Below, one piece after another: positions 20,569 through 44,203 of a stretch of DNA of 64,000 nucleotides. This stretch comes from Macrostomum lignano. Lineage: Eukaryota. The position numbers and the translations under genes are program-made. Positions within the stretch are counted from its first letter, which is position 1. Every line of letters begins with the position of its first letter. The notes under the pieces were generated by a model, which saw only the letters and a list, made by a program, of their open reading frames with translations, was not told the DNA's origin and did no database searches. Location of the stretch: NCBI GenBank assembly GCA_002269645.1, contig NIVC01000181.1, forward strand, positions 213,693 to 277,692, read 5' to 3'.

Positions 20569-20717
20569 TTAATTTTGATTTCCCTCTGTAGCGCCGTTGC
20601 CATAGCCTTCCAGTCCGTTCCTGGCCAGGTAGTCTCGCAGCCACAGGGCCAGGTACTCAATTGGATCGCGGGGCCGGCGCAGGGCCACCTCGGCTACGCC
20701 CAGAGACAGGGCCTTGG
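20569..20717 (-). CDS. Terminal exon of the cyclase encoding a Dpy-30-like motif (absent from the ORF track)
   Basis: Translates (A)[54 protein letters not shown] acceptor at 20718 matches the phase-1 GTGAGT donor at 21425. Confidence 0.8.
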
Positions 20718-23700: not shown

Positions 23701-26700
23701 AGAGGATCAAGTCTCAATGGGAGAATCTCAGAGGATCAAGTCTCAATGGGAGAATCTCAGAGGATCAAGTCTCAATGGGAGAATCCCAGAGGATCAAGTC
23801 TCAATGGGAGAATATCAGAGGATCAAGTCTCGGTAAGAGAATCTCAGAGGATCAAGTCTCAATAGGAGAATCCCAGAGGATCAAGTCTCAATGGGAGAAT
23901 ATCAGAGGATCAAGTCTCAATGGGAGAATCTCAGAGGATCAAGTCTCAATGGGAGAATCCCAAAGGATCAAGTCTCAATGGGAGAATCTCAGAGGATCAA
24001 GTCTCAATGGGAGAATCTCAGAGGATCAAGTCTCAATGGGAGAATATCAGAGTATCAAGTCTCAATGGGAGAATCTCAAAGGATCAAGTCTCAATGGGAG
24101 AATCTCAGAGGATCAAGTCTCAATGGGAGAATCTCAGAGGATCAAGTCTCAATGGGAGAATCTCAGAGGATCAAGTCTCAATGGGAGAATCCCAAAGGAT
24201 CAAGTCTCAATGGGAGAATATCAGAGTATCAAGTCTCAATGGGAGAATCTCAAAGGATCAAGTCTCAATGGGAGAATCTCAGAGGATCAAGTCTCAATGG
24301 GAGAATCTCAGAGGATCAAGTCTCAATGGGAGAATCTCAAAGGATCAAGTCTCGGTGGGAGAACCTACATATGCCTAGTGCCACAGAGTACTGAAGTCTG
24401 AGGAGATCTGAACTTTTCATTGCAAAGGCAATTAATCTACCTGTCAGATCAACATCATAAAAATGTGGCGGTGTCTTTTTGTCTGTGACATTCTCGTGCC
24501 TGCCGTAATTAGAGCGTCACATTCTGTGAAGTTAGATAAATAATTTTATCAGACTTTTAAGATTCAGGTATGAGAAGGCATTTAATTGAGACAGATCGGA
24601 TAGAACCAAAGATTTGCATGTCATCGTCTTCAAGGCTCTGCAGGTGCAATTATCGCAAAATTTTTGACCGCGCAGGGACATCAGGGCGGTGACCATGGCC
24701 CTCTCGGGTCATGGCTGTTTTGCCAGGCATCGCCACCTCCAGGGAAAATCCTCAGTGAGGCATCCCCTTTCTGCCTCTCCGGTGTCGAGAATGCGGAGCA
24801 CTTTATCTGTGAATGCCCCGCCTTTACTCAGGACAGGCTCTCCTACCTCGGCACCAACCCGGACCTCTCCGACGTTTTCAGGCCCCAGAATCTCTGCCAG
24901 CTCGTCCGCTACCTAAGGGCTACCGGGCGAGCGACAGTCCACCTCCTGGACTCTCCAGAGGGGGACCGCGCTGCGGACACCGGCACCACCGGAACTCCCT
25001 GCGCGACACCGCAGCTACCCGTGGTCGCCAGGGGTTAGCGAAATGGGCGGCAACGCCTCCTGGCTGCATCCGGAAGCACGGAGCCCCCTGCAGCTGAGTC
25101 AAGTAAGTCAAGCCCGCAACCCCCCCCCCCTACGAGTGCTGATTTAACGTGAGTGGAACTTTGAGGTCCGTGTGGTTTCGAAGACTGGAGCTTTGAGCAG
25201 GCTGCGCAATGCACCTTAATCGTAGTCATGGGATCGAGTCCTTTACGCAGTTTCCTGGCCACGGACTTCGGCAGGCATTCAAATAGAAGGCTGTCCGCCC
25301 GCTTCCTCTCTCGGTCCAGCTTCCGCATGCTCAGCTCCATCTGACGGGTCTGCTCTTGTTGCTGGAGACAGGAATTCGGGAATTCAAATTTAATAAATCA
25401 TCCATAACTAAACCACAGACACTTGAATAGCTGGATGGGCCACTCAGCACATCTGCGTGTAAACTACTTTCAGTTCAGTAGTCAGTTAAACAGAAGCATT
25501 TTATTGTATTTTTAAATGGCTCAATTTATTGGCTCTTACTCCAGCTTAAACTATCTAACTGCGCCTTTCCATACTACCCCCGCCGCCTCGTCCCAATTTT
25601 TATTGCCTTTCTCGGACTCCCAGCCTGAAGCTTCAGCTATGTACATTTCAGTGGACTGGCTAATGTACATTATTTCTGAACCAATTAGCGAGCTGTTTAC
25701 GTCTGCAAGCTTGGCTTCTAAACTTATCAGAGTAATTTCAGCTGCCTTGATTTTTATAAAATAAGCTTATGTATTCTTCTGTGCTACTGAACTGAAAGTA
25801 GAAAGCTGTTTTACTGTAAGTATATATGCCTGAGTGGCCCATCTAGTTATTCTAGTATCTGTGACCTCAACCAACGCCCAATCCATTTTTATTCACCTGT
25901 CTCAGCAGCTCAAACAGTTCCTCAGATTGCTGATCCCCTGCCAGAGTCAAATCCCGGCTGCAATCGTGAAGACTCAAGTCGTTCAGGTAGATGTTTTTCA
26001 GGGCCATTTCGTGCGTGTTCTTCACCCTGAAAATTAAACAGAAAATTTGCGAGTACAAACAGGACTCAACACTAGGCTTCCTCAACTCGTTTTGGAGGCT
26101 CTTAAGATTTTATAATCTGAATTCTACCACTGGAATCTCAAACCTACGACTGGAATCTCAAACCTACGACTGGAATCTCAAACCTACGACTGGAATCTCA
26201 AACCTACGACTGGAATCTCAAACCTACGACTGGAATCTCAAACCTACGACTGGAATCTCAAACCTACGACTGGAATCTCAAACCTACGACTGGAATCTCA
26301 AACCTACGACTGGAATCTCAAACCTACGACTGGAATCTCAAACCTACGACTGGAATCTCAAACCTACGACTGGAATCTCAAACCTACGACTGGAATCTCA
26401 AACCTACGACTGGAATCTCAAACCTACGACTGGAATCTCAAACCTACGACTGGAATTTCAAACCTACGACTGGAAGCTCAATCAAACTACTGGAATCTAT
26501 ATCTTACGACTGGAATCTTAATCCTACGATTGGAATCTATATCTTACGACTGGAATCTTAATCCTACGATTGGAATCTTAATCCTACGACTGGAATCTCA
26601 ACCCTACGACTGGAATCTCAATACTACTACTGGAATCTCAATCGTACAACTGGAATCTCAACCCTACGACTGGAATCTCAATACTACTACTGGAGTCTCA

Positions 26701-29700
26701 ATCGTACAACTGGAATCTCAATCCTACGACTGGAATCTTAATCCTACGACTGAAATCTCAATCCTACGACAGGAATCTGAATCCTACGACTGGAATCTCA
26801 ATCCGAAATCCAACAAAGTCAGCATAAAAGTACACTATCAGCCAACCTAGGCGAGCAGATGTAAAGCAGCCGGTCCCAAGTCGGCATGTAGATCATCTGG
26901 CCCTTGAACCGCACAAGCTTTGAGTCGTCGGAGCGGCTCAAGCTCGTGTCCTCGGACTTGTCGCCGGTTTGTCCCCTGTCCGGCGGGGCGCACTGAGCTT
27001 TCCCGCCGGCCGAAACTGTTCGATTGTAGGCGGCAATTTCGAATATGTTGTGCCGGTGCTTGAGGAACTGCGATTGGTAGGCAATTGAGGGGCTGCTTTT
27101 ATTGGCTGAAGCTGTGTACATGTAATGCTGAAATATCGATTAGAAATAAGTCTGCCTAAGCCGCTTCAAGTGTAGAGTGTTCTACCTCCCGTAAGAAGAC
27201 ATAAAAGTGTTAATGTACTACTCACACATTTTATTTAGTAGTAAATTGAAGAGCATGAATAAAGGTATGCTTTGAACTATAAGTATATTCGGACTAACCA
27301 ATAGGAAGAGAGAGACCTCGAGCATGCTAATTTTAGAAATCACCCAATCACGTGCGACCAACAACTGTCAATTCAAACCCCACCTTCAAGTCATCATTTG
27401 GTTTGCACTCGGGTTGCACCCGGATGAACCAATCAAAGTCTACCAGCTACGGTAACCAATCATGCGCTTTTACAGTAGACTAGTTGCGCAACTTTCTACC
27501 CTGTCATGCTTGACAGCCACCGAATCGTGACCCTTTGACATTTGCGAAGACAGTGATGTACGACCTCGAGAGAGGTCTGAACGCCTATAAATACAAGTGG
27601 TCCGGAACGGACCCGGAGCCACAAAATCTCCAAGAGAGAGAAGCTCCGAAGAGGAAGCTCTAGTGAAGCCTTCCTGAAGAAACTCGCGTCGTGGACGAGT
27701 TCTTGCGGTAAGCCTTACTCATTTGCGCCCGTTGGTTGAGACGTCTCGCTCAAGTCTATTGAGACTTGAGTTTATTTGAGTCTGCTGAGACTCTTGAGTC
27801 TGTTTAGACTCCACTGGTTGCAGTCTCCAGAAGGACTGCCCCTGATAGATCTTAGAAGACTATCAGTGGTTTCCGGAGCCATACCTAGAGTGCATAGAGG
27901 CACTACTAGAAGGAGTAGGCTTATATTAAACCGCAGTTTGGCGCAGGGATCCCCATTGTTAATTTGGAAGCTTCCGATTGGTCCGAACTACAGATACCGG
28001 CCGGCAAGAAGTCAAGAGGACAAAGGAGATAACGGACCAGATCAACTGTTACCAGGCGCCTAAACTTCCTGAAGGACAGGAAAGTTACTGATCGCGATAC
28101 TACGGACGAGGATTATTACGAGAGCTCTCATTTAAGGACTCAAAGGTAATTGAATACCTTCATTTGATTACTGGGTTGCCTAGCTACAGAGCTAGAAGTG
28201 ATTGTTCCTTGATTACAGTTGAGGACTGGTAATAAGGAACACATCAATTGGTGATCTCGCCCTCTCGGCACTACTCAAACTTTTGAGCAATAGCCTGGCC
28301 AAGCTATTGTAAAGTGACGAAAGAGCGACTTCATTAATTTTGCGCGCACGTGTTAAAGGTAACACTTTTCGACACTTTTCGATTTTTGTACGATTTGAAA
28401 CTCGAGTAAAAGTTTAGATATACAGGCTTGAGTACCTGTCAATTTTGAGTAACGTTTGAGCACGCGTGTTAAATTTTTGTTTTTAACGAGCTCGAGCAAG
28501 AGTAAACCTTAAACAAAACCGAAAACAACGTCCGGTACACTGAAAACAAACCGAAAAATAATCAATACACACTAAAACAAAACCGAAATTAAAAACACTT
28601 GACGAAAGCTAAAACAAACCGAAATTTGATAAAACGTGACAAGGCACGTCACGAAGACAAGAAAGGCCTTTGAAAAAAGCAAGAAGCAGCTGCACTTCAA
28701 GCACTTTAAAGATACACTTTGCGGGACGCCGCATAAGTGCGAAAATCAGCCAGCGAATAAGAGGTCAGAAAAGCAGCCAAAAGCCGAATTCCGCTCAAGG
28801 TCAGACATAACAAATTGAGGTGTCAAAAGCGCCGCGAGACAATCAGTTACAACCGAAGTTTATTTCGAAAGAAACACCACACTGGAAGATCCATTACAAA
28901 TCGACCCAGACCTAGAGCTACCGTTCTATCCCATCAACAACATGGCGCGGCGCAATCCAACGGTGCACAGAGATATCAAAGAGACAGTTGGCACCTTTTC
29001 TATGGAAAAAGACTTTAACACCTTTGTTGATCATTTTGACCTGGTATGTAGGGAATACAACCTACAAAATCCAGAAAAAGCGCAACTGTTGCCACCACTC
29101 CTCCAAGGCACTGCACGAGAGATTTATGGTAAACTAGATGCGGCAACACAGCAAAACTACCCAGCATTAATCATTCAACTGCGCGCGCATTTCAACCGCT
29201 GTGGCACAAACAGATCAGTGCTACTGCACAAGTTGCATAACAGAAGGATGCAGCCAACCGAATCCTTCCTGACCTTTGTGGACGACATCCGTCAGATAAT
29301 TAAGGCACTGCATCAGCCAACACTGCCAGCTGCAGACCAACCACCTCTGGGTGCGGCAGAATTAGCCGCTAGAGAGCGACAGCGATTGATGGATCGCGAA
29401 CAAAATCTGATTCTGCACGTAATAAACAATGCACAGCCGTCACTCCGAGATAGACTTCTACGCGAAAACATTGAAACCGAGGAAGACCTTTTACGGTGCG
29501 GAATGCAGTGGGAAGCAAGCGCTCCACTAATGACAACCGGCAACACAGAAGTGCAGAAACTGACACAGCAACTAAACAAACTGATGCAACATCAAACAGC
29601 CGTTATCGCCGAACAAAAAAGACGAAATGAACGAGCCCAAGCCAGATGCTATTACTGTGGACGAGAAGGACACTACCAAATACATTGTCCTCATCGGTCA

Positions 29701-32700
29701 ACAAGAAATGACATGCAGCGACAGCCATTCAACAGAAGGAAGCCGCAAAAACCATGGCAACAACATCAAAATTGGCAGCAGCAAAACACGAAACGCTTCG
29801 GAAACAATGGCTACAGACCGCGAAACACCAGATACATGCCCAAGCAACCAACGCAAGCGATGCAACGATATGCAAACGCCATCACGTACACACCGGAAAG
29901 CGAACAGCAAGAGCAGCAAGTCTTCACGATAGACGACTTAGAAATGGACTTCACTATCAATGAAATCGACTGGCTCGATGTGGAGAGCAGCGAAAAGACA
30001 AAAAACATCAGCATGGTCGAAATGAAAGAAACTAACATTGACAGCGAAGAAGAAAAGACAGAAGTGAGCACAGAAAAAACATTGTCAAGCGACATCAGTG
30101 AAAGAAAAGAAGAAACAAACAAAGCAACGACAAAGAACTGGCAACGAAGGATGACAACGAAAGAAGCAACGACGGAAATGCGGAGATGGAAGAAGAACAG
30201 CAAGAAGAAAGCAGCGATCACGATTATGAGATGCACAATGACGCTGATGACAACCGAGCCGCCGACAAAGAACATGAAGACGGAAGGCACAAAGGAATGG
30301 AAGAAAGAAATCTAAGCTCCGACAGCGATCAATGCTACGAGATCCGCTATAAACGAAATGGTGAAGCCTACATCCAAACGGTCGACTACAAGGCCGAAGT
30401 GAGGTACCGCAGACAATGGAGTGACACAACTACAACATCGGAAGAAAGCAAGGAAGAAAATGATGAAGACGACAAGCAGCGGAACGAATCGGATGCCTTG
30501 CGCTCGGAAACGCCAATGGAACAAGAGGAAGAATACGATGCGGACGCAGAAGATAACGAATGGCAGCCGCAGCCAATGCCAGCAAAGACAACGGCAACGT
30601 TCAGAAAATGGCGATTCTGGATATTCTGGATCATCATAATACTACTGACGGCAGTAGTCACCAAAGCAACAGCAATGGAGAAACCAATGATATGTCCAAC
30701 GGATGCGCATATCCAACCGATGATCTACAAGATACCAACCGACATCAAATGCAGCTACTTCAAGACAAATCAGACGAAGCCAAAGAAGATCACAATTGAT
30801 CTCTACAAAGCTAACATCAAGAAGCATCGACAACTCGGAATAGTGTGCTTTAGAGACAAGCACCTAGTGGAAAAAGTTTGGCGAGGACAATGGAACAGAA
30901 TTCGATTTTGGCAACACGAACTACATGTGTCGCACGCTGAATGTCTACAATGGAACCAAACACTGTTCTCAAAGGATGGTCAGCTAGAACCGGATGAGAA
31001 AGTGGGGGAGGCACAACTTTACCGAACGAAGAACTCAGCAAACGGACGATATGTACACTTTTCGGAAGCATGGACTAACTACATGACACGAAACAGTTAC
31101 CTAATCAGGAATGTTCCGTTCTACTACAATCCGTACGAGAAAATGGAATCACTGCAACTGCAACTAAGTGAATGCCGATACAGCGAAGGATGGTGCCCAA
31201 CGCCGATATTGCGAAATGCAGAACTCTACAGCCTACCGCTGAGTCCAACGTATCATCCAGACTATCGATGGCAGATAGTGCACAGAGCGATCCACACTAC
31301 GAAGAGCCATCAAAGTCACGACAATATTTCTTCGCTTGGAAGGTTGAGACGGAAATCGACTGTCAACTACAAAAGTACCACACAGTGGAAGGAGGCCTAC
31401 TGTCAAACACGTTTTTGGCAAAGTCAGGAGACTTGGCACTGACGTTTCAAAAGAAACCAGTCGAGCAAAAACTGAAATGCAAGGATACAGACAAGACACT
31501 ATTCATCTCGGAACAAGAGATACCAGTCTACGTAAAAGATGACGACAAACAAACCTTTCTGGCGATCATCAACGGAACGTATCAACAGCAGGAACAACAG
31601 AACAGACGACGACGTGACATCGAACGTCCCAAACTGGTGTCAAACCGACTACTGTCAGCAAAGATAACGGCTTTGGATCACAATCTACACAACCAGTTAA
31701 ACCACTTGCATCGAACACTGGTCCAGCTAACTTGCAAAATGCACGCAATCAACTTAAATTATGCCAGACAAAACTACTATGTCAACCCTACGATGACTTT
31801 TCGTAAAATCACCGGAATGACGAACGTTTTGGCAGTTCCAATATACGAGCATCTGTTGATATACAAGTGCACGCCGATACAGCACTTTAACATCTTGCCG
31901 TCGAACACGTCAACAACCTGCTACGACAAGCCAAGGATTGAAGCGTTCTACGAAGGAAAACGAATTCAAGGATTCTTGGACACGGTACACAACATCATCG
32001 TTGGCACCGCAATACCGAGACCTTGCACCACGGCAGCAAACTACTATCAACTGGACAATGCACTACACGTCATCAAAACAACTGGAACGACAGCAAACAT
32101 CACAGAACCGGAAGTAATCGTCGACGAAAACTACGACATGGAGGATTTGAAAATCCGATTCAACAGAACGAAGTATACGCCATTCGCCGATATCCAACTT
32201 GACGAGATAACACCAGGATGGACGATCAACGACTTCTTGCAAGCGTTCATCACCCAACGCAAGATGATTCACCAGCTGTTCACAAGAAAGGACAAAGGAA
32301 CCGGGACAGGAAGATTTCCCGTCCTTGTTTCAATGGACAGCGCCATCAAATCATTTTGGACAAACAGCTTCTGGGAGCTGCTCAATGGAAGAGGCAGTCT
32401 CTATCAAGGATTCATCTTCTACGGTGCTTGCATTGTGTGGATTGTCACGGCAATCTTCATCATTTCGTCGATCGTACGGTGCTTCAGTCAAACTTGTCCA
32501 AAAGCTAAGAAGACAGTTAATGCCATAATGCAAAGAACGACAACGGAAGGCGACAACAGTTTAGAACTAACAGAAACTGCACATCGTGAGGTTCAAGGGC
32601 AACCGACACTAGCAACGCGGCTATATCCATCGATTCCGACAACACCAACGGCACCAAGAATACAACCACCTAACTATCAAGCAGAACAGCAAGACCCAAA

Positions 32701-35700
32701 ATGGCCAGAGAACTACGTATGTACTCTACACGCCGAAATTGGCAAAGCCATGGCTCAAGTGGTAATCAACAATCTACCATGTCGAGCGCTACTCGACTCC
32801 GGCAGCTCCATCACAGTTATATCAAAACAACTGTGCAACAAGCTACGACTTGCTCTACGGCCAGCAACAATCGCAGTTGCAGGAGCAGGAGGACATTCGC
32901 TAAACATTCTGGGAAAAGCCGACATTGATTTAAGAATCGCTAATAAACATTTGACAGTTCCAACGTACGTCATCGACAGACTCCCAAACCAGGACGTTAT
33001 TGTTGGCATCGACACGTTCAAGCAGCTTCGACTACCATTGACCTTCGACTTCAATAAGCAAACGTTCAAGATCGACTCGGTAGAACAACCATTGATCAAC
33101 CAGATCCGAGTACTACCAAAAGTAACATTGCAACAAGATGTCATCATCCAACCGGAGAGCGCCTGCTGGATAAAGGCAAAGGCAACTAACGCAACGGAGG
33201 AAGCAATGATATTCGACCCAAACAGAAGAGTCACGGCTAAACACCAAATTATGATGCCTACGGCACTAGTACTGGTTGCAAAAGATAAACAGCTGCCAGT
33301 ACAAATATTCAACCCGAACACAGAAACGGTTCATCTACGACAAGGAATGTGCATCGGTCATCTCAACACCCAAGCATCGGTTATGCTGATTGAGCAAGCG
33401 ACTCCACGACTAACAGAGGAAGAATTTCAAAAGAAGATCAATTTGGATGACAGCCCGATTACGGAACAGCAAAAGAGGAAAGTTCGACAGCTGTTGTGGA
33501 AGTACAACGACGCTTTCTGCCACCATGACTACGACATCGGACGAGCCAAGGACATCAAACAGGAAATCAAACTTCTGCCGCACACGGAACCAATTCAGTG
33601 CAAACCGTACCCGATCGCCAAGCATCTGCAACAGCACTTCGATGAGATTATCGACAAAATGCTGAAACACGGCATCATCAGCAAAGCCATTTCAGCATAC
33701 TCATCACCATGTCTCTTGGTACAAAAGAAGGAGACTAACGAAAGACGACTCGTATGTGACTTCAGACTGCTGAACAAGTACATACCGACGGATCAGCAAA
33801 GCCTACCGAAGATCTCCGAACTACTAGCAAAGCTCAACACGGCAAAATTGTTCACAGTGTTCGACCTACGTCATGGATTTTGGCAAATTGAAATCGAGAA
33901 AGAGTCACGACAGTACACGGCTTTCAAAACCTACAATGGACAAGTATACGAGTACAATCGATCGCCGATGGGACTCAGCAACAGCCCAGCAACGATGAGC
34001 CGACTAACAGCATACATGCTTGCAGGATGCACGAACCTGTTGCACTATGTTGACGACATCTTGGCCTACGGAGAAGACTTCGAACGACTCTATGAAGCGA
34101 CGGAGAAGGCCCTCGCGCTTATCAACGACAAGGTCTTAAGCTACAACCAACTAAATGCAAATTCTTCCGAGACAACGTGCGTTACCTGGGACATCAGGTG
34201 ACAGCCAAAGGAATTTCACCGGACCCAGACAACGTGGATAAAGTGAAAAAGTTTCCTACGCCAACTAGCAAAACGAAGGTCCAATCATTTCTTGGACTTG
34301 CGCAATACTTCCGAAAGTTCTTACCCAACTTCGCGAAGACAGCAAAGCCGCTGTACGACCTGCTCAAGTTCGACAAATGGAAGCAGGAGAATTGGACACA
34401 AAAGCAACAAGAAAGTTTTGACGAAATCAAACGACAGCTGACATCAGACGCACTGCTACAGCATCCGGACTTCGACAAACCCTTCATCATCGAGACAGAC
34501 GCCTCAGGAACGGGACTCGGAGCAGTCCTACTACAGGAAACTGAAGACAAAAAGGAACGACCTATAGCCTACGTCAGTCGAGCACTTAAACCGAATGAGA
34601 CAAAATGGTCAGCTACGGAACGAGAACTACTAGGAGTTCTGTTCGCCCTACGACAGTTTCACTACTACATCTATGGATCTCCATTACAGACGATAGTACG
34701 CACAGATCATGCACCGCTGACCTACGTCGTAACTACAAAAGGACAAACAAACAACCGACTCATCAGGATGACACTCAAGATCCAGGACTACAACTACAAG
34801 CTCGTCTACAAACCAGGAATTACTAACAAGGCCGCGGACGCCCTGTCAAGAGCCTACGAAGTCAACGCCATTCATCCAATTCCTAACATCAAGGAGTTGA
34901 TGGATGAAACCGTGAACGACTACTTCTACCAAGCAGTTAAAAACAACGACAAGGACATCAAGCTCAGCCCCGTGGAACGAAAATTCCTGCGCAAGCAGCG
35001 ACAGCATTTAACAATCAACAAGTCACGACTCTACTGGATGAGTGACAACAAACCTAAAATCTACATGCCATATTCGTTTAGGCAGGCAATTCTCAACGAG
35101 CTGCACGACAACCCACTCGCTGGACACCTGTCGGCAGCCAAAACCATTGCAAGAGTGGAGCAATACTACTTTTGGCCAAGCATGCATGGCGACATCAAGC
35201 AGTATTGCAACAACTGCCACTCATGCGCAGCATCAAAGACAGGACGACGACAAAAACCACAGCTACAATCGATACCAAAGTCAACAACTATGGACTGTCT
35301 CAGCATCGACATCACCGGACCGCTGCCACCGAGCTGTCTCCATGGCATAGCCTACACCTACATCCTAACAGCCTTGGACATTTTCTCAAAGTTTGCTATT
35401 GCCATACCAATACCGGACATCACAGCTCAGACAGTGGCAATGGGTTTCTTCAACGACATCATCTGCAAGTACGGTACGCCAAAGAACCTCACATCGGACA
35501 ATGGATCGCAGTTTACGTCTCAACTCTTTCAGCAAGTGGTGAAGATCCTCAACATCACGCAGATCTACACATCGACCTACAATCCGAAGGCGAACATGGT
35601 TGAAAGGTTTCACCGCAACCTACACGAGATGATTACACACTTCGCGCATCAACAACCGGACGACTGGATCATCTATCTGCAAGCAGTAACAATGGCCTAC

Positions 35701-38700
35701 AACAGCGCTATTCATCGATCAACGGACAATACGCCATTCTTTCTAATGTTTGGGCGAGACTTCCAGCCGCCAAACCTATTGGCACAGCAACTACTACCAT
35801 CGCAATATGTGGAAGTCCCGACGTCCATTCAAAAGTTCGTCACGCAACTACACCTCGCATGGAAAGTAGCCAAGCACAACATCGACAATCAGGTGGCTCT
35901 AACCACCGGCACCGACACGAGATCGACAACTCTGACAGCCGGCGACATCGTCTACCTGCACTATCCGCCGCAACAGACGCACAAACACGCACAGAAGTAC
36001 AAAGGACCATATCGAGTGGTCCAACTAACGTCACCGACAACGGCACGCCTGGCCAATGTGCAAGATCCTCATCAGCACCAATTCTACGTGCACATTCATC
36101 GACTAAAGAAGATCAACACTGACACGACAACGTTTTTACCGTCACTAGACAACGCTGATCGCACGCGTTCGGCGAACCGCCACATCGCAACAAAACACGA
36201 GGAGACACAAACATCAACCGAGAACCAGCAACATGGCTACAATCTGCGACCTCGTTAAGTTGCGAAAACAACCCGTGTAGAGACCGGGTCAGAATAGCTC
36301 TACAGCTTCGCAAGCTTGTCGTAAGAGGCGACTAATCTGAGCGACTTCAAACTTCAAGCGACGACGACAATGGGCAACGCACTGTCCAAACAGGCGCCCC
36401 AACTACAGCAACTCTATGAATGCCCAATATGTTTAACTGATGACTTGGCTGTCAAGCCACCAATTATTTGTGAAAACAGACATCGCATATGCGGACAATA
36501 TTTAAGCGACTCACATTATATTCAGCTCTGGCAGAATTGCCCGATAGGTAGAAGTAGTTTGCGGCAGTGCGCCTATTGTTAGTCTTGGCGCACATGTCAA
36601 TACTGTAACCAAAAACATTTTATTTGCATGCGTATACTTACCTTTAAATAACTTTTATAACCAACGCTCTTAACTACCCATTACTAAATACCTGTAACAC
36701 TTGTGACAAATGATTATTATAAAGACATGCTTGAACTTTTTATGCGTTTCAATCCTCTATTTAAAACTCGGGACGAGTTTTTTGTAAACATGGGAGATTT
36801 TGTAGAGTGTTCTACCTCCCGTAAGAAGACATAAAAGTGTTAATGTACTACTCACACATTTTATTTAGTAGTAAATTGAAGAGCATGAATAAAGGTATGC
36901 TTTGAACTATAAGTATATTCGGACTAACCAATAGGAAGAGAGAGACCTCGAGCATGCTAATTTTAGAAATCACCCAATCACGTGCGACCAACAACTGTCA
37001 ATTCAAACCCCACCTTCAAGTCATCATTTGGTTTGCACTCGGGTTGCACCCGGATGAACCAATCAAAGTCTACCAGCTACGGTAACCAATCATGCGCTTT
37101 TACAGTAGACTAGTTGCGCAACTTTCTACCCTGTCATGCTTGACAGCCACCGAATCGTGACCCTTTGACATTTGCGAAGACAGTGATGTACGACCTCGAG
37201 AGAGGTCTGAACGCCTATAAATACAAGTGGTCCGGAACGGACCCGGAGCCACAAAATCTCCAAGAGAGAGAAGCTCCGAAGAGGAAGCTCTAGTGAAGCC
37301 TTCCTGAAGAAACTCGCGTCGTGGACGAGTTCTTGCGGTAAGCCTTACTCATTTGCGCCCGTTGGTTGAGACGTCTCGCTCAAGTCTATTGAGACTTGAG
37401 TTTATTTGAGTCTGCTGAGACTCTTGAGTCTGTTTAGACTCCACTGGTTGCAGTCTCCAGAAGGACTGCCCCTGATAGATCTTAGAAGACTATCAGTGGT
37501 TTCCGGAGCCATACCTAGAGTGCATAGAGGCACTACTAGAAGGAGTAGGCTTATATTAAACCGCAGTTTGGCGCAGGGATCCCCATTGTTAATTTGGAAG
37601 CTTCCGATTGGTCCGAACTACAGATACCGGCCGGCAAGAAGTCAAGAGGACAAAGGAGATAACGGACCAGATCAACTGTTACCAGGCGCCTAAACTTCCT
37701 GAAGGACAGGAAAGTTACTGATCGCGATACTACGGACGAGGATTATTACGAGAGCTCTCATTTAAGGACTCAAAGGTAATTGAATACCTTCATTTGATTA
37801 CTGGGTTGCCTAGCTACAGAGCTAGAAGTGATTGTTCCTTGATTACAGTTGAGGACTGGTAATAAGGAACACATCACAAGGTGAGGCAGCCAGATGTCTC
37901 ACTTTCAGATGTGAGACTGGGTGAGATTCCAGATGTGAGATTGGGCGAGATTTCAGATGTGAGATTGGGTAAGATTCCAGATGTGAGATTGGGTGAGATT
38001 TCAGATGTGAGATTGGGTAAGATTCCAGATGTGAGATTGGGTGAGATTTCAGATGTGAGACTGGGTGAGATTTCAGATGTGAGACTGGGTGAGATTCCAG
38101 ATGTGAGACTGGGTGAGATTCCAGATGTGAGACTGGTTGAGATTTCAGAGATGAGACTGAGTGAGATTCCAGATGTGAGACTGGGTGAGATTCCAGATGT
38201 GAGACTGGGTGAGATTCCAGATGTGAGACTGGGTGAGATTCCAGATGTGAGACTGGTTGAGATTTCAGAGATGAGACTGGGTGAGATTCAGATGTGAGAT
38301 AAACTCAGATATGAGACTTCAGACTCAGCCAGCCTGTCTCACCTCATCCCAGCAGCAGTCGATGAAGGGCCTGATCAACATGAAGTTGATGCCAAAGTGG
38401 ACCCCGTCAGCAGCCTCGCCAAGGATGTTGGCAAACCCGCTGCCAGCAGCGCTGACTGTCAAGCTCCTGTCCAAGGCCAGGTAGTAAGGGAACAGGGTGA
38501 TGAAGTCCCTGTAGGGCACAACGTAAGAATCGGGATCGATGATTCGATAAGCGGTGCTGTGCTCGCCCGAGTAGGCCACGTTATCGAATCTGAGCTCGTA
38601 CACGTACAGGCTGTAGGCGCCCTGCTGGCTACTGTCGACGAGGCCGATGTCCAGCTCCAGCTGGTAGAGAACTCTGGCTATGGTGTACAGCTGGCCCCGG

Positions 38701-39869
38701 GCGTAGTGCTGGAAGCCGGGCCGGCGAGTCTTGTACAGAATCCGCATGCCTGGAATGGTGTCGGGGGCGTCAAGGCGGCTTGCAGCACCTTCGGGTGTAC
38801 AGCGGGTCCTCTGACTTTCTAATCGTCAGGCATGTCCCCCCCCCCAGATGAGACCATTGACAACTGGAGTAGCAGTGGCCTTGAGGAATTTCAGATGGTC
38901 AGATAAGTATTGTAGTATTGTCACGGCTTCATTATAAGACTTCTAGGTGAGACTAATAGGCACCAGGTGAGACAAAGAGAAGCGCCAGGTGAGACACCGT
39001 GAGACGCAAGGTGACACACAGAGAGACGCCAGGTGAGATGCAGAGAGACGCCAGGTGAGACACAGAGAGAGAACAGGTGAGACACAAATAAGCGCCAGTT
39101 GAGACACAGAGAGAGAACAGGTGAGACACAGAGAGAGAACAGGTGAGACACAGAGAGAGAACAGGTGAGACACAGAGAGAGAACAGGTGAGACACAGAGA
39201 GAGAACAGGTGAGACACAGAGAGAGAACAGGTGAGACACAGAGAGAGAACAGGTGAGACACAGAGAGAGAACAGGTGAGACACAGAGAGAGAACAGGTGA
39301 GACACAGAGAGAGAACAGGTGAGACACAAATAAGCGCCAGGTGAGACACAGAGAGAGAACAGGTGAGACACAAATAAGCGCCAGGTGAGACACAGAGAGA
39401 GAACAGGTGAGACACAAATAAGCGCCAGGTGAGACACAGAGAGGCGCCAGTCGAGTTTAGAAGGCTACAAGCCACCCCGCTCCGCACCGGTGGGACTCTC
39501 GTCGGCCACAATGAAGGTGGGCGGTCGGATTCGCGGATATGAAAAGCGCAGGTGCTCGTGCAGATTGTCAATGCCGTGGTAGAAGTCCCTGAGGTGGCGG
39601 CCCATGACCCGCAGCACTTTATCGTAGCCGTACTTGGCCAGGTAGCCGACAAAGAAGCAGCCGTTCTCAAATGTCAGCTGATCGACTGTCAGGCCAGTGA
39701 GGCTGGATGCGGCCTCAAAAAGCTGCATCAGCAGATGCTCATTGTAGCCGCGTCGAGTCTCGAATGTGGGATGCCGACACTCGGCTAGTTCACGAATTTT
39801 CGCCCAAGCCTGAGCACCGTAGGTGTGCTCAAGATAGTGCTGGACTCCTTCAAGTAGGATGCCGTACAT
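20569..39869 (-). CDS. Atypical soluble guanylate cyclase (H-NOX, PAS, coiled coil, cyclase) with C-terminal Dpy-30 motif; 9 exons
   Basis: Exons 39488-39869, 38343-38749, 26847-27067, 25897-26026, 25215-25361, 23418-23564, 22412-22852, 21426-22203 (acceptor could be 22242) and 20569-20717. All junctions are GT-AG and in phase. Motifs: [115 protein letters not shown]. Confidence 0.93.
20896..21265. repeat. 20-bp pyrimidine-rich minisatellite in cyclase intron 8
   Basis: Unit CTCACTCTTCCTCAGTTCCT. Confidence 0.95.
22234..22387. repeat. 20-bp minisatellite in cyclase intron 7
   Basis: Unit GTCACTCAGCTAATCCATCT, about 7 copies. Confidence 0.9.
22876..23397. repeat. 35-bp minisatellite in cyclase intron 6
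   Basis: Unit CAATGATGCGGTCCAGTTTTCATCGTTCGGAGACA; starts at 22876 and 22911. Confidence 0.94.
23645..24363. repeat. 29-bp minisatellite in cyclase intron 5
   Basis: Unit GGGAGAATCTCAGAGGATCAAGTCTCAAT. Confidence 0.95.
24660..25112 (+). mobile_element. 5'-truncated, frameshifted 3' end of a non-LTR retrotransposon (LINE ORF2 C-terminal Cys/His motif)
   Basis: [16 protein letters not shown] in one frame continues as [23 protein letters not shown] in another. This fits the GHG...C-x-C...E-x-x-x-H...CP tail of I/R1/LOA-type ORF2. Boundaries approximate. Confidence 0.62.
25414..25863. mobile_element. MITE-like non-autonomous DNA transposon, copy 1 (34-bp imperfect TIRs starting CACAG)
   Basis: Left end CACAGACACTTGAATAGCTGGATGGGCCACTCAG; right end reverse-complements to CACAGATACTAGAATAACTAGATGGGCCACTCAG. 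A similar copy lies at 49821-50269. Confidence 0.85.
26128..26803. repeat. 20-bp minisatellite in cyclase intron 3
   Basis: Unit GACTGGAATCTCAAACCTAC. Confidence 0.96.
27171..28246 (+). repeat. 5' LTR
   Basis: Starts TGTAGAG and ends ACATCA. TATAAATA at 27586. No difference from the 3' LTR seen in spot checks. Confidence 0.96.
28248..28262 (+). promoter_or_regulatory. Putative primer-binding site
   Basis: TGGTGATCTCGCC starts 2 nt after the 5' LTR. It loosely resembles the tRNA-Trp complement TGGTGACCCCGAC; primer identity is uncertain. Confidence 0.5.
28942..30315 (+). CDS. gag: Gag (capsid-like region plus CCHC zinc knuckle); true frame probably shifts near 30100-30140
   Basis: [18 protein letters not shown]...[14 protein letters not shown] and [14 protein letters not shown] at 29647-29688. 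Confidence 0.9.
   Translation: MARRNPTVHRDIKETVGTFSMEKDFNTFVDHFDLVCREYNLQNPEKAQLLPPLLQGTAREIYGKLDAATQQNYPALIIQLRAHFNRCGTNRSVLLHKLHNRRMQPTESFLTFVDDIRQIIKALHQPTLPAADQPPLGAAELAARERQRLMDREQNLILHVINNAQPSLRDRLLRENIETEEDLLRCGMQWEASAPLMTTGNTEVQKLTQQLNKLMQHQTAVIAEQKRRNERAQARCYYCGREGHYQIHCPHRSTRNDMQRQPFNRRKPQKPWQQHQNWQQQNTKRFGNNGYRPRNTRYMPKQPTQAMQRYANAITYTPESEQQEQQVFTIDDLEMDFTINEIDWLDVESSEKTKNISMVEMKETNIDSEEEKTEVSTEKTLSSDISERKEETNKATTKNWQRRMTTKEATTEMRRWKKNSKKKAAITIMRCTMTLMTTEPPTKNMKTEGTKEWKKEI
30186..31442 (+). CDS. env: Acidic linker, internal signal/TM segment and N-terminal half of env-like ectodomain
   Basis: [22 protein letters not shown] followed by Cys-rich MICPT...[11 protein letters not shown] and [10 protein letters not shown]; NQT sequon. 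Confidence 0.72.
   Translation: MEEEQQEESSDHDYEMHNDADDNRAADKEHEDGRHKGMEERNLSSDSDQCYEIRYKRNGEAYIQTVDYKAEVRYRRQWSDTTTTSEESKEENDEDDKQRNESDALRSETPMEQEEEYDADAEDNEWQPQPMPAKTTATFRKWRFWIFWIIIILLTAVVTKATAMEKPMICPTDAHIQPMIYKIPTDIKCSYFKTNQTKPKKITIDLYKANIKKHRQLGIVCFRDKHLVEKVWRGQWNRIRFWQHELHVSHAECLQWNQTLFSKDGQLEPDEKVGEAQLYRTKNSANGRYVHFSEAWTNYMTRNSYLIRNVPFYYNPYEKMESLQLQLSECRYSEGWCPTPILRNAELYSLPLSPTYHPDYRWQIVHRAIHTTKSHQSHDNISSLGRLRRKSTVNYKSTTQWKEAYCQTRFWQSQETWH
31172..34201 (+). CDS. pol: C-terminal env half (furin site, gB-like region, TM) fused in frame to aspartic protease and reverse transcriptase
   Basis: NRRRRD at 31604-31615; [25 protein letters not shown] at about 32408-32476; LLDSGSS at 32795; [11 protein letters not shown]; DLRHGFWQI; YVDD at 34046-34057. 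Confidence 0.92.
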   Translation: MPIQRRMVPNADIAKCRTLQPTAESNVSSRLSMADSAQSDPHYEEPSKSRQYFFAWKVETEIDCQLQKYHTVEGGLLSNTFLAKSGDLALTFQKKPVEQKLKCKDTDKTLFISEQEIPVYVKDDDKQTFLAIINGTYQQQEQQNRRRRDIERPKLVSNRLLSAKITALDHNLHNQLNHLHRTLVQLTCKMHAINLNYARQNYYVNPTMTFRKITGMTNVLAVPIYEHLLIYKCTPIQHFNILPSNTSTTCYDKPRIEAFYEGKRIQGFLDTVHNIIVGTAIPRPCTTAANYYQLDNALHVIKTTGTTANITEPEVIVDENYDMEDLKIRFNRTKYTPFADIQLDEITPGWTINDFLQAFITQRKMIHQLFTRKDKGTGTGRFPVLVSMDSAIKSFWTNSFWELLNGRGSLYQGFIFYGACIVWIVTAIFIISSIVRCFSQTCPKAKKTVNAIMQRTTTEGDNSLELTETAHREVQGQPTLATRLYPSIPTTPTAPRIQPPNYQAEQQDPKWPENYVCTLHAEIGKAMAQVVINNLPCRALLDSGSSITVISKQLCNKLRLALRPATIAVAGAGGHSLNILGKADIDLRIANKHLTVPTYVIDRLPNQDVIVGIDTFKQLRLPLTFDFNKQTFKIDSVEQPLINQIRVLPKVTLQQDVIIQPESACWIKAKATNATEEAMIFDPNRRVTAKHQIMMPTALVLVAKDKQLPVQIFNPNTETVHLRQGMCIGHLNTQASVMLIEQATPRLTEEEFQKKINLDDSPITEQQKRKVRQLLWKYNDAFCHHDYDIGRAKDIKQEIKLLPHTEPIQCKPYPIAKHLQQHFDEIIDKMLKHGIISKAISAYSSPCLLVQKKETNERRLVCDFRLLNKYIPTDQQSLPKISELLAKLNTAKLFTVFDLRHGFWQIEIEKESRQYTAFKTYNGQVYEYNRSPMGLSNSPATMSRLTAYMLAGCTNLLHYVDDILAYGEDFERLYEATEKALALINDKVLSYNQLNANSSETTCVTWDIR
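34177..36258 (+). CDS. pol: RT C-terminus, RNase H and integrase (HHCC, D,D35E, GPY/F)
   Basis: [46 protein letters not shown]...[32 protein letters not shown]. No chromodomain seen. Confidence 0.95.
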   Translation: MRYLGHQVTAKGISPDPDNVDKVKKFPTPTSKTKVQSFLGLAQYFRKFLPNFAKTAKPLYDLLKFDKWKQENWTQKQQESFDEIKRQLTSDALLQHPDFDKPFIIETDASGTGLGAVLLQETEDKKERPIAYVSRALKPNETKWSATERELLGVLFALRQFHYYIYGSPLQTIVRTDHAPLTYVVTTKGQTNNRLIRMTLKIQDYNYKLVYKPGITNKAADALSRAYEVNAIHPIPNIKELMDETVNDYFYQAVKNNDKDIKLSPVERKFLRKQRQHLTINKSRLYWMSDNKPKIYMPYSFRQAILNELHDNPLAGHLSAAKTIARVEQYYFWPSMHGDIKQYCNNCHSCAASKTGRRQKPQLQSIPKSTTMDCLSIDITGPLPPSCLHGIAYTYILTALDIFSKFAIAIPIPDITAQTVAMGFFNDIICKYGTPKNLTSDNGSQFTSQLFQQVVKILNITQIYTSTYNPKANMVERFHRNLHEMITHFAHQQPDDWIIYLQAVTMAYNSAIHRSTDNTPFFLMFGRDFQPPNLLAQQLLPSQYVEVPTSIQKFVTQLHLAWKVAKHNIDNQVALTTGTDTRSTTLTAGDIVYLHYPPQQTHKHAQKYKGPYRVVQLTSPTTARLANVQDPHQHQFYVHIHRLKKINTDTTTFLPSLDNADRTRSANRHIATKHEETQTSTENQQHGYNLRPR
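36370..36582 (+). CDS. Small accessory ORF inside the retroelement: N-myristoylation motif plus degenerate Siah-like RING finger, 70 aa
   Basis: MGNALS...ECPIC...[11 protein letters not shown]...CPIGR. Two expected Cys codons are each one base from TGT (TAT, GGT). Confidence 0.5.
   Translation: MGNALSKQAPQLQQLYECPICLTDDLAVKPPIICENRHRICGQYLSDSHYIQLWQNCPIGRSSLRQCAYC
36801..37876 (+). repeat. 3' LTR
   Basis: Copy of the 5' LTR at a constant offset of 9630; followed by the CAAG TSD. Confidence 0.96.
37900..38320. repeat. 24-bp minisatellite in cyclase intron 2
   Basis: Unit GAGATTCCAGATGTGAGACTGGGT. Confidence 0.93.
38945..39447. repeat. 22-bp minisatellite in cyclase intron 1
   Basis: Unit CAGGTGAGACACAGAGAGAGAA. 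Confidence 0.94.
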
Positions 39870-40072
39870 TGCCTTTGCGATCTCGGCAGCTTCTGCGAAG
39901 TTTGAACCAGTTGGGAAACTGCCGGCTTTTATGCTTGCGGGCGGTCTGCTTCTGCGATTGGCCTCACTGTCTTGGGGCCAATTAGGCGAAAGAGAATTAT
40001 TCAGCCACCGGCCATAAACTTGCTGCACAGGATCCGGATAAGGGTAATCGCTTCTAATGCAATTTCCCATCT

Positions 40073-40192
40073 GCGAGAGCTCACTGCCCAGTTGCTGACC
40101 CCATAGCGAGAGCTCACTGCCCAGTTGCTGACCCCATAGCGAGAGCTCACTGCCCAGTTGCTGACCCCATAGCGAGAGCTCACTGCCCAGCA
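40073..40192. repeat. 33-bp tandem repeat, about 3.5 copies
   Basis: Unit GAGAGCTCACTGCCCAGTTGCTGACCCCATAGC. Confidence 0.9.
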
Positions 40193-40833
40193 ACTACTCT
40201 TGAATCATGAGCTCCGGTTCACCCTGCTCTGAGCTACCGTAGAAACTAATCAGCTGGGAGAAATTGTGTTGAGGTTCTCTCGGCAGAGCTCAATTAACTT
40301 TGACATTGAATATACAGGGATTTCTAGTAAATACTGGGCAGCGGCGGATATTGACTTCTTGGCTTGCTGTTCGGCCTTGCGCAAAAGACAGGCCCGGACG
40401 CAGACAGGAAAGGACATCGGCGAAAAGGAGATGGCCAGGCAAGCAGAAAAAATCCAATTAGCAGCCCCAGATCTGCTAGCAAATCAACTCGTTTTCCTGT
40501 TTATCTGTGACAGTTTTTTTTTAAAAAGCATTTCAGTTACTTTCAGTTACTTCCGTTTTAAAAAACCATTTTCAACCGTTTTTTGCTTGAGCTACTGTTA
40601 GTAGTGTAAAATCTAATGTAACAAACCGTCGAAAAACATGCCGCATTTAAAGTTCACTATTTTGGGACTAAGAACGCTATATTTTCGATAAGAAGAAGCC
40701 ATTAGTTAAACAGTCAAGATGAAATCAGTTAATAACGAAAGGTTGCATAACGAGCAACTGAAGTATTTGTCGTATTTCTAAGAAAGCCGACTGCAGCGTC
40801 CTTCTGCTTCAGCTGGCCGTGAATTGCAGGGAA

Positions 40834-42168
40834 TCAGAACAGGAGCGGCACAATCTTGTACGGCACCAGTTTGCAGTACTCGGACCAGTACTTCCCGTAC
40901 TTGTCCCGGCATTTCTTATCGTCGCGGAAGCTTCGATGGAACAGCAGTACGCTGAGGAACGCGAAGTACATGTAGGGGATGATGTGGCAGCCAGTTCCGC
41001 ACACAGCTGACCAGCACAGGGTCAGGCTGAGCTCCGGGATGTAGTGGAAATGCCGGGACACCGCCCAGAATCCGCTTGCAAGCAGTACAGACTGGCGCTC
41101 CTGGCCATTGTCCAGGCTGTACTTGGCTCTGATCACCCGCGCCGGCCGGCCCCAGATGTTCAGCTGACCGTCCGCGGCTCTGGCCGCCTGCTTTTGCCAA
41201 TCGCTCCAGTAGTTGACGGCCAGGCTGGCCAGACCGAAGCCCAGCAGGGCGGCTGTCCACGCGGGTCCCACCGGCTCCGGCTGGCGCACCATGAACAGAC
41301 TCACCAGGGTGTAGAAACTCGGCACGAAGCACAGACAGCCCCAGCAGATGTAGAATCCGGCTCTGTCGGTGATGATGTCGATTGTTCGATAATAGCCAGC
41401 CTCCCACCAGAAGAACTTGGTGAGGTAGAGCAGCTGCAGCGCTGCGGTGACCGCCATGCCGTCAACTACTCGACCGTGCAACTCGTAGCTTTTCAAGGCG
41501 AACACAGCGACAGCCAGGGCCCAGACTGTCAGACCGAAGCGGCAGTTGGTGAACACCTTGATGTCGATGCCGCATATTCTGGGGTAGAGCTCGGTGCCCC
41601 AGTAATAGTCGAACAGGTAGTTGCCGCTCCGACCGTGATCAGTCGATGTCGGCGCCAGGACGCCTTTGACGCACAGGAGCAAGCAGAAGGCCAAGCTCAG
41701 CAGAATCATGGAGGCCAGAAAGTCGCCGTAATAATCATAAATCACCGTCGGAGTCAGGCCGCGCTGCTTCAGATAGACCGTGCCAGCTAGGAACGTTGCC
41801 ATGGTGATGAGGTAGCACGCGAATCCGTTGTCTTTGTACTCGGGCACGTGACCTGTGGGCGTCTCGGTGCCGTAGCAGGTCCTACCCGGCACCAGCAGCA
41901 TCAGCAGCACCTGGAAGGCGCAGAAGGCGAGAATGGCAGCGTAGACAGCCGGGTTGGCGACGCTCACCGCCGCCCAGACCAGCGCGGGTCCACCCCGATT
42001 GGTCAGACGATCTGCCAGTTCGGTCAGGCTGCCCTGACAGTGGACTGAAGCGTACCACAGGTACATCACCGACTGCGGAACCAGCAGAATGAGCAGCAGC
42101 GGTATGACTGTTCGGTTGATAAATTGCACCAAAGGTCCTTCCGCTTGTTTCAACTGTTTGGTTGCCAT
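40834..42168 (-). CDS. DHCR7: 7-dehydrocholesterol reductase (ERG4/ERG24 sterol reductase family), intronless, 444 aa
   Basis: YYWGTELYPRI, DIKVFTNCRFG, WEAGYYRTIDIITDRAGFYICWGCLCFVPSFY, SGFWAVSRHFHYIPE, RDDKKCRDKYGKYWSEYCKLVPY; several TM segments. Confidence 0.95.
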   Translation of the reverse strand: MATKQLKQAEGPLVQFINRTVIPLLLILLVPQSVMYLWYASVHCQGSLTELADRLTNRGGPALVWAAVSVANPAVYAAILAFCAFQVLLMLLVPGRTCYGTETPTGHVPEYKDNGFACYLITMATFLAGTVYLKQRGLTPTVIYDYYGDFLASMILLSLAFCLLLCVKGVLAPTSTDHGRSGNYLFDYYWGTELYPRICGIDIKVFTNCRFGLTVWALAVAVFALKSYELHGRVVDGMAVTAALQLLYLTKFFWWEAGYYRTIDIITDRAGFYICWGCLCFVPSFYTLVSLFMVRQPEPVGPAWTAALLGFGLASLAVNYWSDWQKQAARAADGQLNIWGRPARVIRAKYSLDNGQERQSVLLASGFWAVSRHFHYIPELSLTLCWSAVCGTGCHIIPYMYFAFLSVLLFHRSFRDDKKCRDKYGKYWSEYCKLVPYKIVPLLF

Positions 42169-42435
42169 GGTAACTACTTGGTCTGGGGTCGCCTTTAGCC
42201 AGTAAGTTGAAAATCGGAAGCTTTACTTATAATAGTTGATTTATATGCAAATGTATAGTTTAAAACGCCCCTCAACCCGTCTGCCTCCAACTGTGCATAC
42301 AGCTTTGAGTACAGAGCTCTGGAATCGATCATACTTCTTATGCTCTGCCTCGTTTCGGTCATGGGCGCTCCACCCTACCCCCTCCGAACCACTCCCTCCT
42401 GCTGTGCTCACACGAGACGGTGGCGTGATTTCGAG

Positions 42436-42437
<2 letters not shown>

Positions 42438-42496
<59 letters not shown>
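42438..42496. repeat. (CA)n microsatellite
   Basis: About 29 CA units. Confidence 0.97.
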
Positions 42497-42500
<4 letters not shown>

Positions 42501-43024
42501 TGCAACTGTGTCTGTGCGCTTCACCCTTTCCCTGCTATTTCTGCCTTATGTTTACTTGCTTTTGCCCTCCGAGGGCAGTGTACAACGACAATAACAGGGG
42601 GGGGGGGTATTTAGTCTAAGTATGTATAGTTTATGTGCAGCATGTCCCTGCCAGAGATCTTATATTCCGATGCAAAGGTTAATTGCTGATCTCCAGTTGA
42701 AAGTAACGTGCGCACTGGCAAGTGATTCACAAGAGGAAGGGAGGACTCAAGTACAGGCATGCGAGTGCAGCCGTGGCTTCGGCTAGCTGGCTAAATTCTT
42801 TTCTCGTCTAGTTCCCCTCTCCCCCCTAAGGGGACGGCTTTGGGAGTTTCCTTTCCACTGGCTAAGCCAAACTGTCATTGGGAACAAACTCTTCGTTTTC
42901 CTGCTCGGCTGATGAGCTTTCTTTTAACCTCTGCACAATGTGGCATGGCAACCAGTCAGTAATAATGCCATTATCGATCTGTACGCTGTGAGATCAAGGA
43001 GACGGGCCATTAGATCAGATGGAG

Positions 43025-43245
43025 TGATCAGATAGAGAGAGAGTGTGTGTGATCAGATAGAGAGTGATCAGATAGAGAGTGATCAGATAGAGAGTGATCA
43101 GATAGAGAGTGATCAGATAGAGAGTGATCAGATAGAGAGTGATCAGATAGAGAGTGATCAGATAGAGAGTGATCAGATAGAGAGTGATCAGATAGAGAGT
43201 GATCAGATAGAGAGTGATCAGATAGAGAGTGATCAGATAGAGAGA
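43025..43245. repeat. 15-bp minisatellite (GATCAGATAGAGAGT) followed by a (GA)-rich tract
   Basis: Read directly from sequence. Confidence 0.95.
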
Positions 43246-43799
43246 TTTTGAGAGGGAGAAAGAGAGAGAGAGAGAGGGGAAGAGAGAGAGAGAGAGAAGA
43301 GAGGTCACGGCGTGTTAAATTATTTAATTGAAAGTAGACTACCGGTTTCAAGCCTCTGGGCTCTTCGTCAGGTCTCTTGTAAGTAAAATTTTCTCTATCA
43401 CAATACAAGCGCATTTATTCTACTACTTCAGAAAATTTCTAAAGCAAAGCTGTATAATTTAAAGGACACACCTGGAACTTTCTTATTTGTAGTTGTGCAG
43501 GTGAGAAAGGTGCTTATCAAATATTAAGTTGTCGGAGCAAATGTGAGTCCACAGAATTTCACAAAATACAATCTGTTAGGTTCATATTGGTGCTTTTCGT
43601 GTTCTTATCAACCGCGGGTGCTTCCCTTGAGTCTAAGTGCAAAGTCTAACTTCATGTCGTTTGCAAAAGTTCGGAGGCTCTCCGAAGCAAAATCTGATTA
43701 GTAAGGATAAAAATGCCTAAAATAAGGATAAACTATTTTAGGATTTTTGTTTTGACTAGAAAGTATATTTGAGTTATTGGTGTTACCATTTTCGAGCAG

Positions 43800-44203
43800 A
43801 TGTCACCGTTTTCAGCAGGTATCACCATTGTCTAACGGGTATCACCATTGTCTAACAGGTATCACCATTGTCTAACAGGTATCACCATTGTCTAACAGGT
43901 ATCACCATTGTCTAACAGGCGTCACCACTGTCTAACAGGTATCGCCACTGTCTAACAGGTATCACCATTGTCTAACAGGTATCGCCACTGTCTAACAGGT
44001 ATCACCATTGTCTAACAGGTATCACCATTGTCTAACGGGTATCACCATTGTCTAACAGGTATCACCATTGTCTAACAGGCGTCACCACTGTCTAACAGGT
44101 ATCGCCACTGTCTAACAGGTATCACCATTGTCTAACAGGTATCGCCACTGTCTAACAGGTATCACTACTGTCTAACAGGTATCACCATTGTCTAACAGGT
44201 GTC
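43800..44203. repeat. 20-bp minisatellite
   Basis: Unit TATCACCATTGTCTAACAGG. Confidence 0.95.

Follow-up and report, generated by a model that had tools for sequence, protein, structure and literature searches.

A recently mobile GAG-ENV-POL Ty3/Gypsy family of Macrostomum lignano with a predicted class III Env between Gag and protease in one reading frame

We analysed a 64,000-nt stretch of the Macrostomum lignano genome (the window; forward strand of contig NIVC01000181.1, positions 213,693 to 277,692, assembly GCA_002269645.1), which carries a Ty3/Gypsy long terminal repeat (LTR) element at window positions 27171-37876. The element is bigger than the 28942..36258 given for it in an earlier note made from the letters alone, and its two LTRs, of 1076 bp each with TG...CA ends, show no differences between them. 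It is a young copy of an M. lignano GAG-ENV-POL family, and its features, all on the plus strand, are as follows.

27167..27170, +, left target-site duplication, 4 bp, with the second copy at 37877-37880
27171..28246, +, 5' LTR, 1076 bp, TG...CA, identical to the 3' LTR
27707..27992, +, probable GT..AG intron within the LTR leader; joint seen in both runs guessed to be RNA and in neither of two others
28249..28260, +, tRNA primer-binding site (PBS); same 12-mer as in the published Mlig_errantivirus_2
28942..29688, +, Gag, capsid region and CCHC knuckle (29647-29688); zf-CCHC match weak, expectation value (E) 0.05; ratio of nonsynonymous to synonymous substitution rates (dN/dS) 0.01-0.05
29689..30602, +, variable, polar/acidic linker from Gag to signal; frameshift near 30120 in the window copy; dN/dS about 0.4-0.5
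30603..30674, +, predicted internal signal segment (hydropathy): basic n-region, hydrophobic core, A-T-A end
30675..32407, +, Env ectodomain, predicted class III (glycoprotein B (gB) / chuvirus G type); frameshift near 31285 in the window copy
31604..31615, +, furin-type site RRRR; R-x-K/R-R retained in all six open copies compared
32408..32476, +, predicted Env transmembrane (TM) helix (hydropathy)
32621..32677, +, late-domain-like motif cluster in the TM-to-protease linker: YPSI 32624, PTAP 32645, PPNY 32666
32756..33013, +, aspartic protease (PR), DSG 32795; PF13650, E 1e-10
33722..34791, +, reverse transcriptase (RT; YVDD 34046) and RNase H (RH); frameshift near 34125 in the window copy
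35068..36258, +, integrase (IN; H2C2 zinc domain, rve core, C-terminal part; Pfam), ending at a stop codon
36373..36582, +, truncated remnant of the first of two double-RING accessory genes
36801..37876, +, 3' LTR, identical to the 5' LTR

The placement of env between Gag and protease, as described in the earlier note, was borne out by every landmark. The CCHC knuckle begins at 29647 and is followed by a hydrophobic segment (30621-30677; Kyte-Doolittle 19-residue mean 2.19) that is preceded by a basic RKWR and includes the A-T-A end at 30674, by an ectodomain with 12 cysteines and six N-glycosylation sequons, by RRRR at 31604-31615 and by a TM peak at 32408-32464 (mean 2.43), with DSG at 32795 and YVDD at 34046 both in place. 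No further hydropathy window above 1.6 occurs elsewhere in the four pieces that make up the coding region. The Pfam order PR-RT-RH-IN is that expected for Metaviridae (Ty3/Gypsy), and no Pao-type protease or integrase-associated domains, as in Belpaoviridae, were found by Pfam in the window element. The nearest solved relative of the C-terminal part of Pol is Ty3-G Gag-Pol (E 1.7e-60, residues 11-673) and the first match outside Ty3 is a foamy integrase (E 4e-23), which places Pol nearer to Ty3 than to retroviruses. The closest named relatives are named M. lignano proteins of 94-98% identity, which possibly derive from the window's own genome and were not tallied as independent copies.

Gag, Env and Pol share a single open frame in this family, which is demonstrated by other genomic copies and not by the window copy. 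In the latter, the coding region consists of four overlapping pieces (28819-30315, 30102-31442, 31172-34201 and 34096-36258) separated by breaks near 30120, 31285 and 34125, so that the one frame noted earlier for Env, protease and RT holds from the C-half of Env through the TM helix and protease to just past YVDD, and does not hold for the whole chain. The Env-linker piece has at least 94 matches in the window's genome, fragments being counted separately, and 12 of these lie in open frames of 2370-2538 codons. We retrieved 20 copies, namely those 12 and eight others. In all 12 long-frame copies, the CCHC knuckle, Env, furin site, PR, RT and IN occupy a single frame, giving a family polyprotein of about 2440-2500 residues. 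Among the 20, the junctions are open in 17 (gag to env), 18 (between the Env halves), 18 (env to PR), 20 (RT to RH) and 13 (RH to IN), and the PBS 12-mer is present in 19. The order is thus conserved in other genomic copies, which carry the 30600-32500 segment, and it is retained by subfamilies of as low as 56-59% identity; the Env stretch is also found in 20 public sequencing runs, none of them recorded as RNA. LTR pairs are visible in 12 of the 20 copies and are 98.6-100% alike over 110-402 bp, indicating that the family moved recently.

The breaks in the window copy are not programmed, since these junctions are open in most copies. A programmed frameshift between gag and env was ruled out because 17 of 20 copies are open there and L012 and L016, the broken copies that could be placed, break elsewhere, and programmed shifts at the second and third breaks were ruled out likewise (18 and 20 of 20 copies open). 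At the first and third breaks, contigs from four of four runs depart from the window sequence, and two listed run contigs have a gap over the second. As the run contigs differ at the breaks and the LTRs carry no differences, we favour, with moderate confidence, an assembly error over private mutations. Two side observations concern the copies themselves. Synonymous divergence (dS) varies strongly by region among L011, L013, L018 and L025 (for L011/L018, 0.04 in the C-half of Env and 0.65 in the N-half), which suggests recombination between subfamilies. Several copies are clustered within tens of kb on contigs C87, C1130 and C2121 of G000; these may be nested arrays or loci resembling clusters of PIWI-interacting RNAs.

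A profile built from 17 Env sequences matches herpesvirus gB chains (E 6e-13), gB accounting for 14 of the 15 listed matches. We modelled only the unbroken C-half from the window copy (369 residues), which is predicted to form a 47-residue helix followed by a β domain. In Foldseek searches this model matches gB with a best E of 9e-7 at TM-scores of only about 0.37, and VIA-align returns gB at Z 8.8 with a root-mean-square deviation of 4.0 over 147 residues, its top eight rows being six gB and two thogotovirus glycoproteins. The long central helix and β crown by which class III fusogens are recognised are both present in the model, within the C-half that it covers. Taken together, the profile and C-half model matches assign Env to the predicted class III fusogens of herpesvirus gB / chuvirus G type. 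They also speak for a fusogen where the earlier note had allowed for a captured host gene. ESM Atlas scores of 0.88 and 0.91 were treated as leads only. Across 12 aligned relatives, 10 of the 12 ectodomain cysteines are invariant and the other two nearly so. Six of seven pairs yield a dS value, and in these the pairwise dN/dS over the ectodomain is 0.06-0.13; Env is thus under purifying selection and is retained as a working part. The same ratio is 0.01-0.05 for RT-RH and IN, and 0.12-0.21 (four pairs) for the linker between the TM helix and protease, which is thus also under constraint.

The order extends well beyond this family. The earlier note had proposed a search for other gag-env-pol Gypsy elements, and such elements exist. 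A profile-free search yielded 28 relatives, of which 12 were examined by Pfam and motif: P0012—a second M. lignano family of 2852 aa, 28-35% identical to the window family—and P0034 have Gag-Env-PR-RT-RH-IN in a single chain, P0021, P0035, P0036 and P0037 have Gag-Env-PR in a single chain, P0016 (from a nematode) and P0033 have Env-PR, and P0024, of the Bel/Pao type, has env at its end. Word-index homologue searches yielded little (one match and three matches, and none for the RING remnant). The Gag-Env-Pol order is conserved both within the family and in distant relatives. As a side observation, two furin-like sites in the Env of P0012 are separated by a long, mucin-like insert rich in Thr and Pro.

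How such a polyprotein might be laid out across a membrane can be predicted from hydropathy and charge. There are exactly two hydrophobic segments per open copy in six of six copies. The first is basic on its N-side (four K/R in P0009, five in P0012), and the second has its basic residues mostly on the C-side in P0009 (three) and balanced in P0012; the pattern around both is less clear in distant relatives. With basic residues flanking both membrane segments on the sides predicted to face the cytosol, Gag and Pol would be cytosolic and the ectodomain lumenal, which fits the two passes postulated in the earlier note. That note's comparison with flavi- and alphavirus polyproteins survives in topology and fails in the fusogen, which is predicted to be class III (gB-like) and not class II.

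The explanation that we consider quite probable as a whole is that this GAG-ENV-POL family makes one polyprotein with a two-pass topology, whose cleavage, Env-tethered Pol, budding and fusion would run as follows. Gag would be synthesised in the cytosol until the internal signal directs the chain into the endoplasmic reticulum (ER), where the gB-type ectodomain would fold and be glycosylated; the TM helix would then bring PR-RT-RH-IN back to the cytosol. To judge from the motifs, signal peptidase would cleave after A-T-A and furin at RRRR, and the element's protease would presumably free capsid, nucleocapsid and enzymes. Since the signal cut would part Gag from everything downstream, packaging of Pol as a Gag-Pol fusion would be impossible, and Pol would most likely enter the particle via a tether to the Env tail or by binding RNA. 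The particle would bud through the Env-bearing membrane, probably via motifs in the Env tail that recruit the endosomal sorting complexes required for transport (ESCRT), and Env might then fuse it into another cell, plausibly from soma to germline by analogy with Drosophila gypsy.

The candidates for such motifs lie in the linker between the TM helix and protease, where YPSI, PTAP and PPNY occur within 19 residues and match the late-domain patterns for ALIX, TSG101 and Nedd4. PT/SAP is present in five of six Macrostomum linkers (shuffle rate 1.5-4% each), a loose YP pattern in six of six (8-12%) and PPxY in two of six (2-7%), in a linker only about 40% identical between subfamilies. The motif counts leave out five relatives, namely P0016, P0033, P0034 and P0035, in which the anchor failed, and P0045, in which the linker was misplaced.

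Further handles are provided by the accessory genes. Two open reading frames (ORFs) of about 200-220 residues lie behind pol in eight of the 20 copies (one being shortened in L020), the region being deleted or truncated in the other 12, and the window copy keeps only the degenerate first RING; the small ORF that remains there, at 36373-36582, gives 106 match rows across the genome. The two accessory genes are paralogues of one another, and their products both combine two Cys/His-rich units with a helical C-domain. Their RING matches in Pfam are sub-threshold (best Sina_RING, E 2e-6), and the model of the second protein (pLDDT 90) matches RING domains at residues 1-65 and 53-108. The C-domain reaches at best Z 5.5-5.7 and has no Foldseek match at E 0.001 in the pdb or viral sets, which does not show a new fold. 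In the closer pairs, dN is well below dS (0.18 and 1.5, 0.09 and 0.35, 0.30 and 1.4). As a guess from these models, the proteins might be ubiquitin ligases. Separately, a likeness of the RING remnant to arenavirus Z, whose signature is a Gly-2 start plus a RING, was not upheld: arenavirus Z turns up only together with many other RING proteins (Z 4.9), and three of five full-length first-gene sequences lack the Gly-2 start. A tentative proposal, which we think somewhat more likely wrong than right, joins these parts: Pol would be delivered as the cytosolic tail of Env, with ESCRT-recruiting late domains on the Env-Pol arm and not on Gag, so that only particles containing Env and Pol bud, and two double-RING ubiquitin ligases would trim surplus enzymes or disarm host defence, a logic undescribed for retroelements.

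Several points weigh against a functional polyprotein of this kind. The element is known here from sequence and models, the window copy is itself broken three times, and the 20-copy sample is biased to long frames and intact copies. An equimolar 1:1:1 output of Gag, Env and Pol would be an unusual ratio for assembling particles, and the analysis turned up no control step. The Env model is of moderate confidence (pLDDT 66, predicted template modelling score 0.36) and covers the C-half only. The late-domain motifs, picked out post hoc, are brief sequences from about three independent lineages, and among four usable distant relatives PT/SAP occurs in none and PPxY in one.

Other accounts must be weighed against the polyprotein reading. 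The single frame might be genomic only, with splicing or recoding yielding separate Gag, Gag-Pol and Env and with Pol packaged via Gag as in ordinary gypsy. In keeping with this, the GT..AG joint of the LTR leader (27707-27992) appears, among four runs, only in the two guessed to be RNA, which suggests that element RNA can be spliced, and the two accessory genes behind pol require a subgenomic RNA or an internal start. The run types are guesses on which the evidence for expression depends, and the joint may represent a spliced leader or transcripts of solo LTRs. An env-skipping GT..AG joint was not seen among the 15 joints shown (of 20) in the four runs, a weak negative drawn from contigs only; both Env borders are open in most copies, and the linker behind the TM helix is under constraint (dN/dS 0.12-0.21). 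We regard this account as distinctly improbable. A further account, in which the 30600-32500 segment stems from a single insertion event, from a chimeric assembly or from capture of a host gene, gains a little from the three frameshifts, which mean that local assembly may be imperfect; the 94 genome matches, the 20 public runs, the order kept down to 56-59% identity, and a sequence and fold that indicate viral class III fusogens refute it.

A closer competitor accepts the polyprotein as proposed and gives Env an intracellular or cell-to-cell role—budding into the ER or vesicles, or the fusing of neighbouring cells—without a free infectious particle. The transmission of gB-type elements is stated to be not understood (PMC13524379), and the internal signal would initially tie Gag to the ER membrane. 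On the other hand, conservation of the furin-type site implies that Env travels through the late secretory pathway, and this account, which we find possible yet rather unlikely, alters just the last step of the polyprotein explanation.

The same reads and the host sequence offered further observations. In three of the four runs, the end of the LTR is joined directly to the middle of env (28246 to 31436), which reflects internally deleted, probably non-autonomous copies. Contig depth over the LTR (27171-28454) is several-fold to tenfold above that of the internal region; it is not a copy number, and suggests many solo LTRs or related families. The element lies in antisense orientation in a host H-NOX gene of the soluble guanylate cyclase type, where it occupies an intron and is some 100 bp away from the next exon, with HNOBA profile positions 4-65 upstream and 62-138 downstream of it (window 26822-27139, 38325-38825 and 39465-40193, minus strand). 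In the host introns (window 20000-26900 and 37880-44300), minisatellite arrays are numerous, their repeat periods being 15-35 bp.

The novelty implied by the earlier note for the gene order does not stand. Chary and Hayashi (eLife 2026; PMC13524379) describe elements of Nematoda, Bryozoa and Platyhelminthes that carry gB-type env only and are arranged GAG-ENV-POL, are not monophyletic, and in some cases have a gB ectodomain flanked by two TM domains; how they enter cells and are transmitted is stated there not to be understood. Their Supplementary file 1 lists nine flatworm elements, only one of them in M. lignano: Platyhelminthes_Rhabditophora_Mlig_errantivirus_2, for which 16 copies are given together with an LTR offset of 9727 and a 12-nt PBS identical to the one here. 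In the window the offset is 9630, and across 12 copies it spans 9529-9890, two of the values being 9721 and 9729. By the arithmetic of that method, the distance between LTR end and pol stop in the listed element comes to about 8180 nt, compared with 8012 in the window and about 8190-8210 in the longer subfamily; the second family, with its frame of 8556 nt, does not fit into that length. The window family is very probably the listed one, a match made by species, geometry and PBS and not by alignment. The main text of that paper is without the words polyprotein, in-frame or frameshift, and likewise does not mention late domain, ESCRT or RING. Rodriguez et al. (2017; PMC5408684) show that invertebrate LTR elements often carry additional ORFs at the 3' side; in the passages searched, RING does not occur as a whole word. 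Judged from the eLife main text, the tail motifs and RING genes may be unreported for such elements. A literature search on the order and on M. lignano env elements found no further paper beyond Chary and Hayashi.

The architecture is therefore already described, for three phyla and probably for this very family, and gene order adds little; the value is mechanistic and would lie in a Pol tethered to Env, in the tail motifs and in the RING pair. Cleavage by signal peptidase between Gag and Pol, if true, would break the usual rule of Gag-Pol packaging, and the Env-tail motifs of budding type and the two double-RING genes are concrete handles. M. lignano, a laboratory flatworm in which RNA interference works, carries young, selected copies whose endogenous products can be studied directly.

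Comparison with known systems helps to place the family. With the gB-type elements of Chary and Hayashi (PMC13524379) it shares order, env class, host species and several near-identical intact copies; that paper also cites Sacco et al. 2022 (J Gen Virol) for ENV before POL in a Metaviridae element of nematodes. Drosophila gypsy and ZAM errantiviruses have in common with it the Ty3/Gypsy core and an env thought to move particles between cells, but theirs is an F-type (class I) env in a separate 3' ORF behind integrase, whereas here it is internal and predicted to be class III, so that the element is not an errantivirus in the strict sense. The nematode non-canonical endogenous retroviruses (NERVs) reportedly have one continuous gag-env-pro-pol ORF with extra small or helicase ORFs; the window family shares the continuous frame and differs in its host, M. 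lignano instead of a nematode. Bel/Pao elements with a chuvirus/gB-like glycoprotein (Anakin, Tas and P0024) use the same fusogen class, and in P0024 env is fused into one polyprotein, but their env follows integrase, and the Pao protease and DUF5641 that they contain are absent from the window element. Finally, flaviviruses, alphaviruses and foamy viruses also encode a capsid followed by an internal signal and a lumenal glycoprotein, and foamy Pol is packaged without a Gag fusion; their genomes are unrelated to the window element and their fusogens are of class II or I, so that the parallel is one of analogy only.

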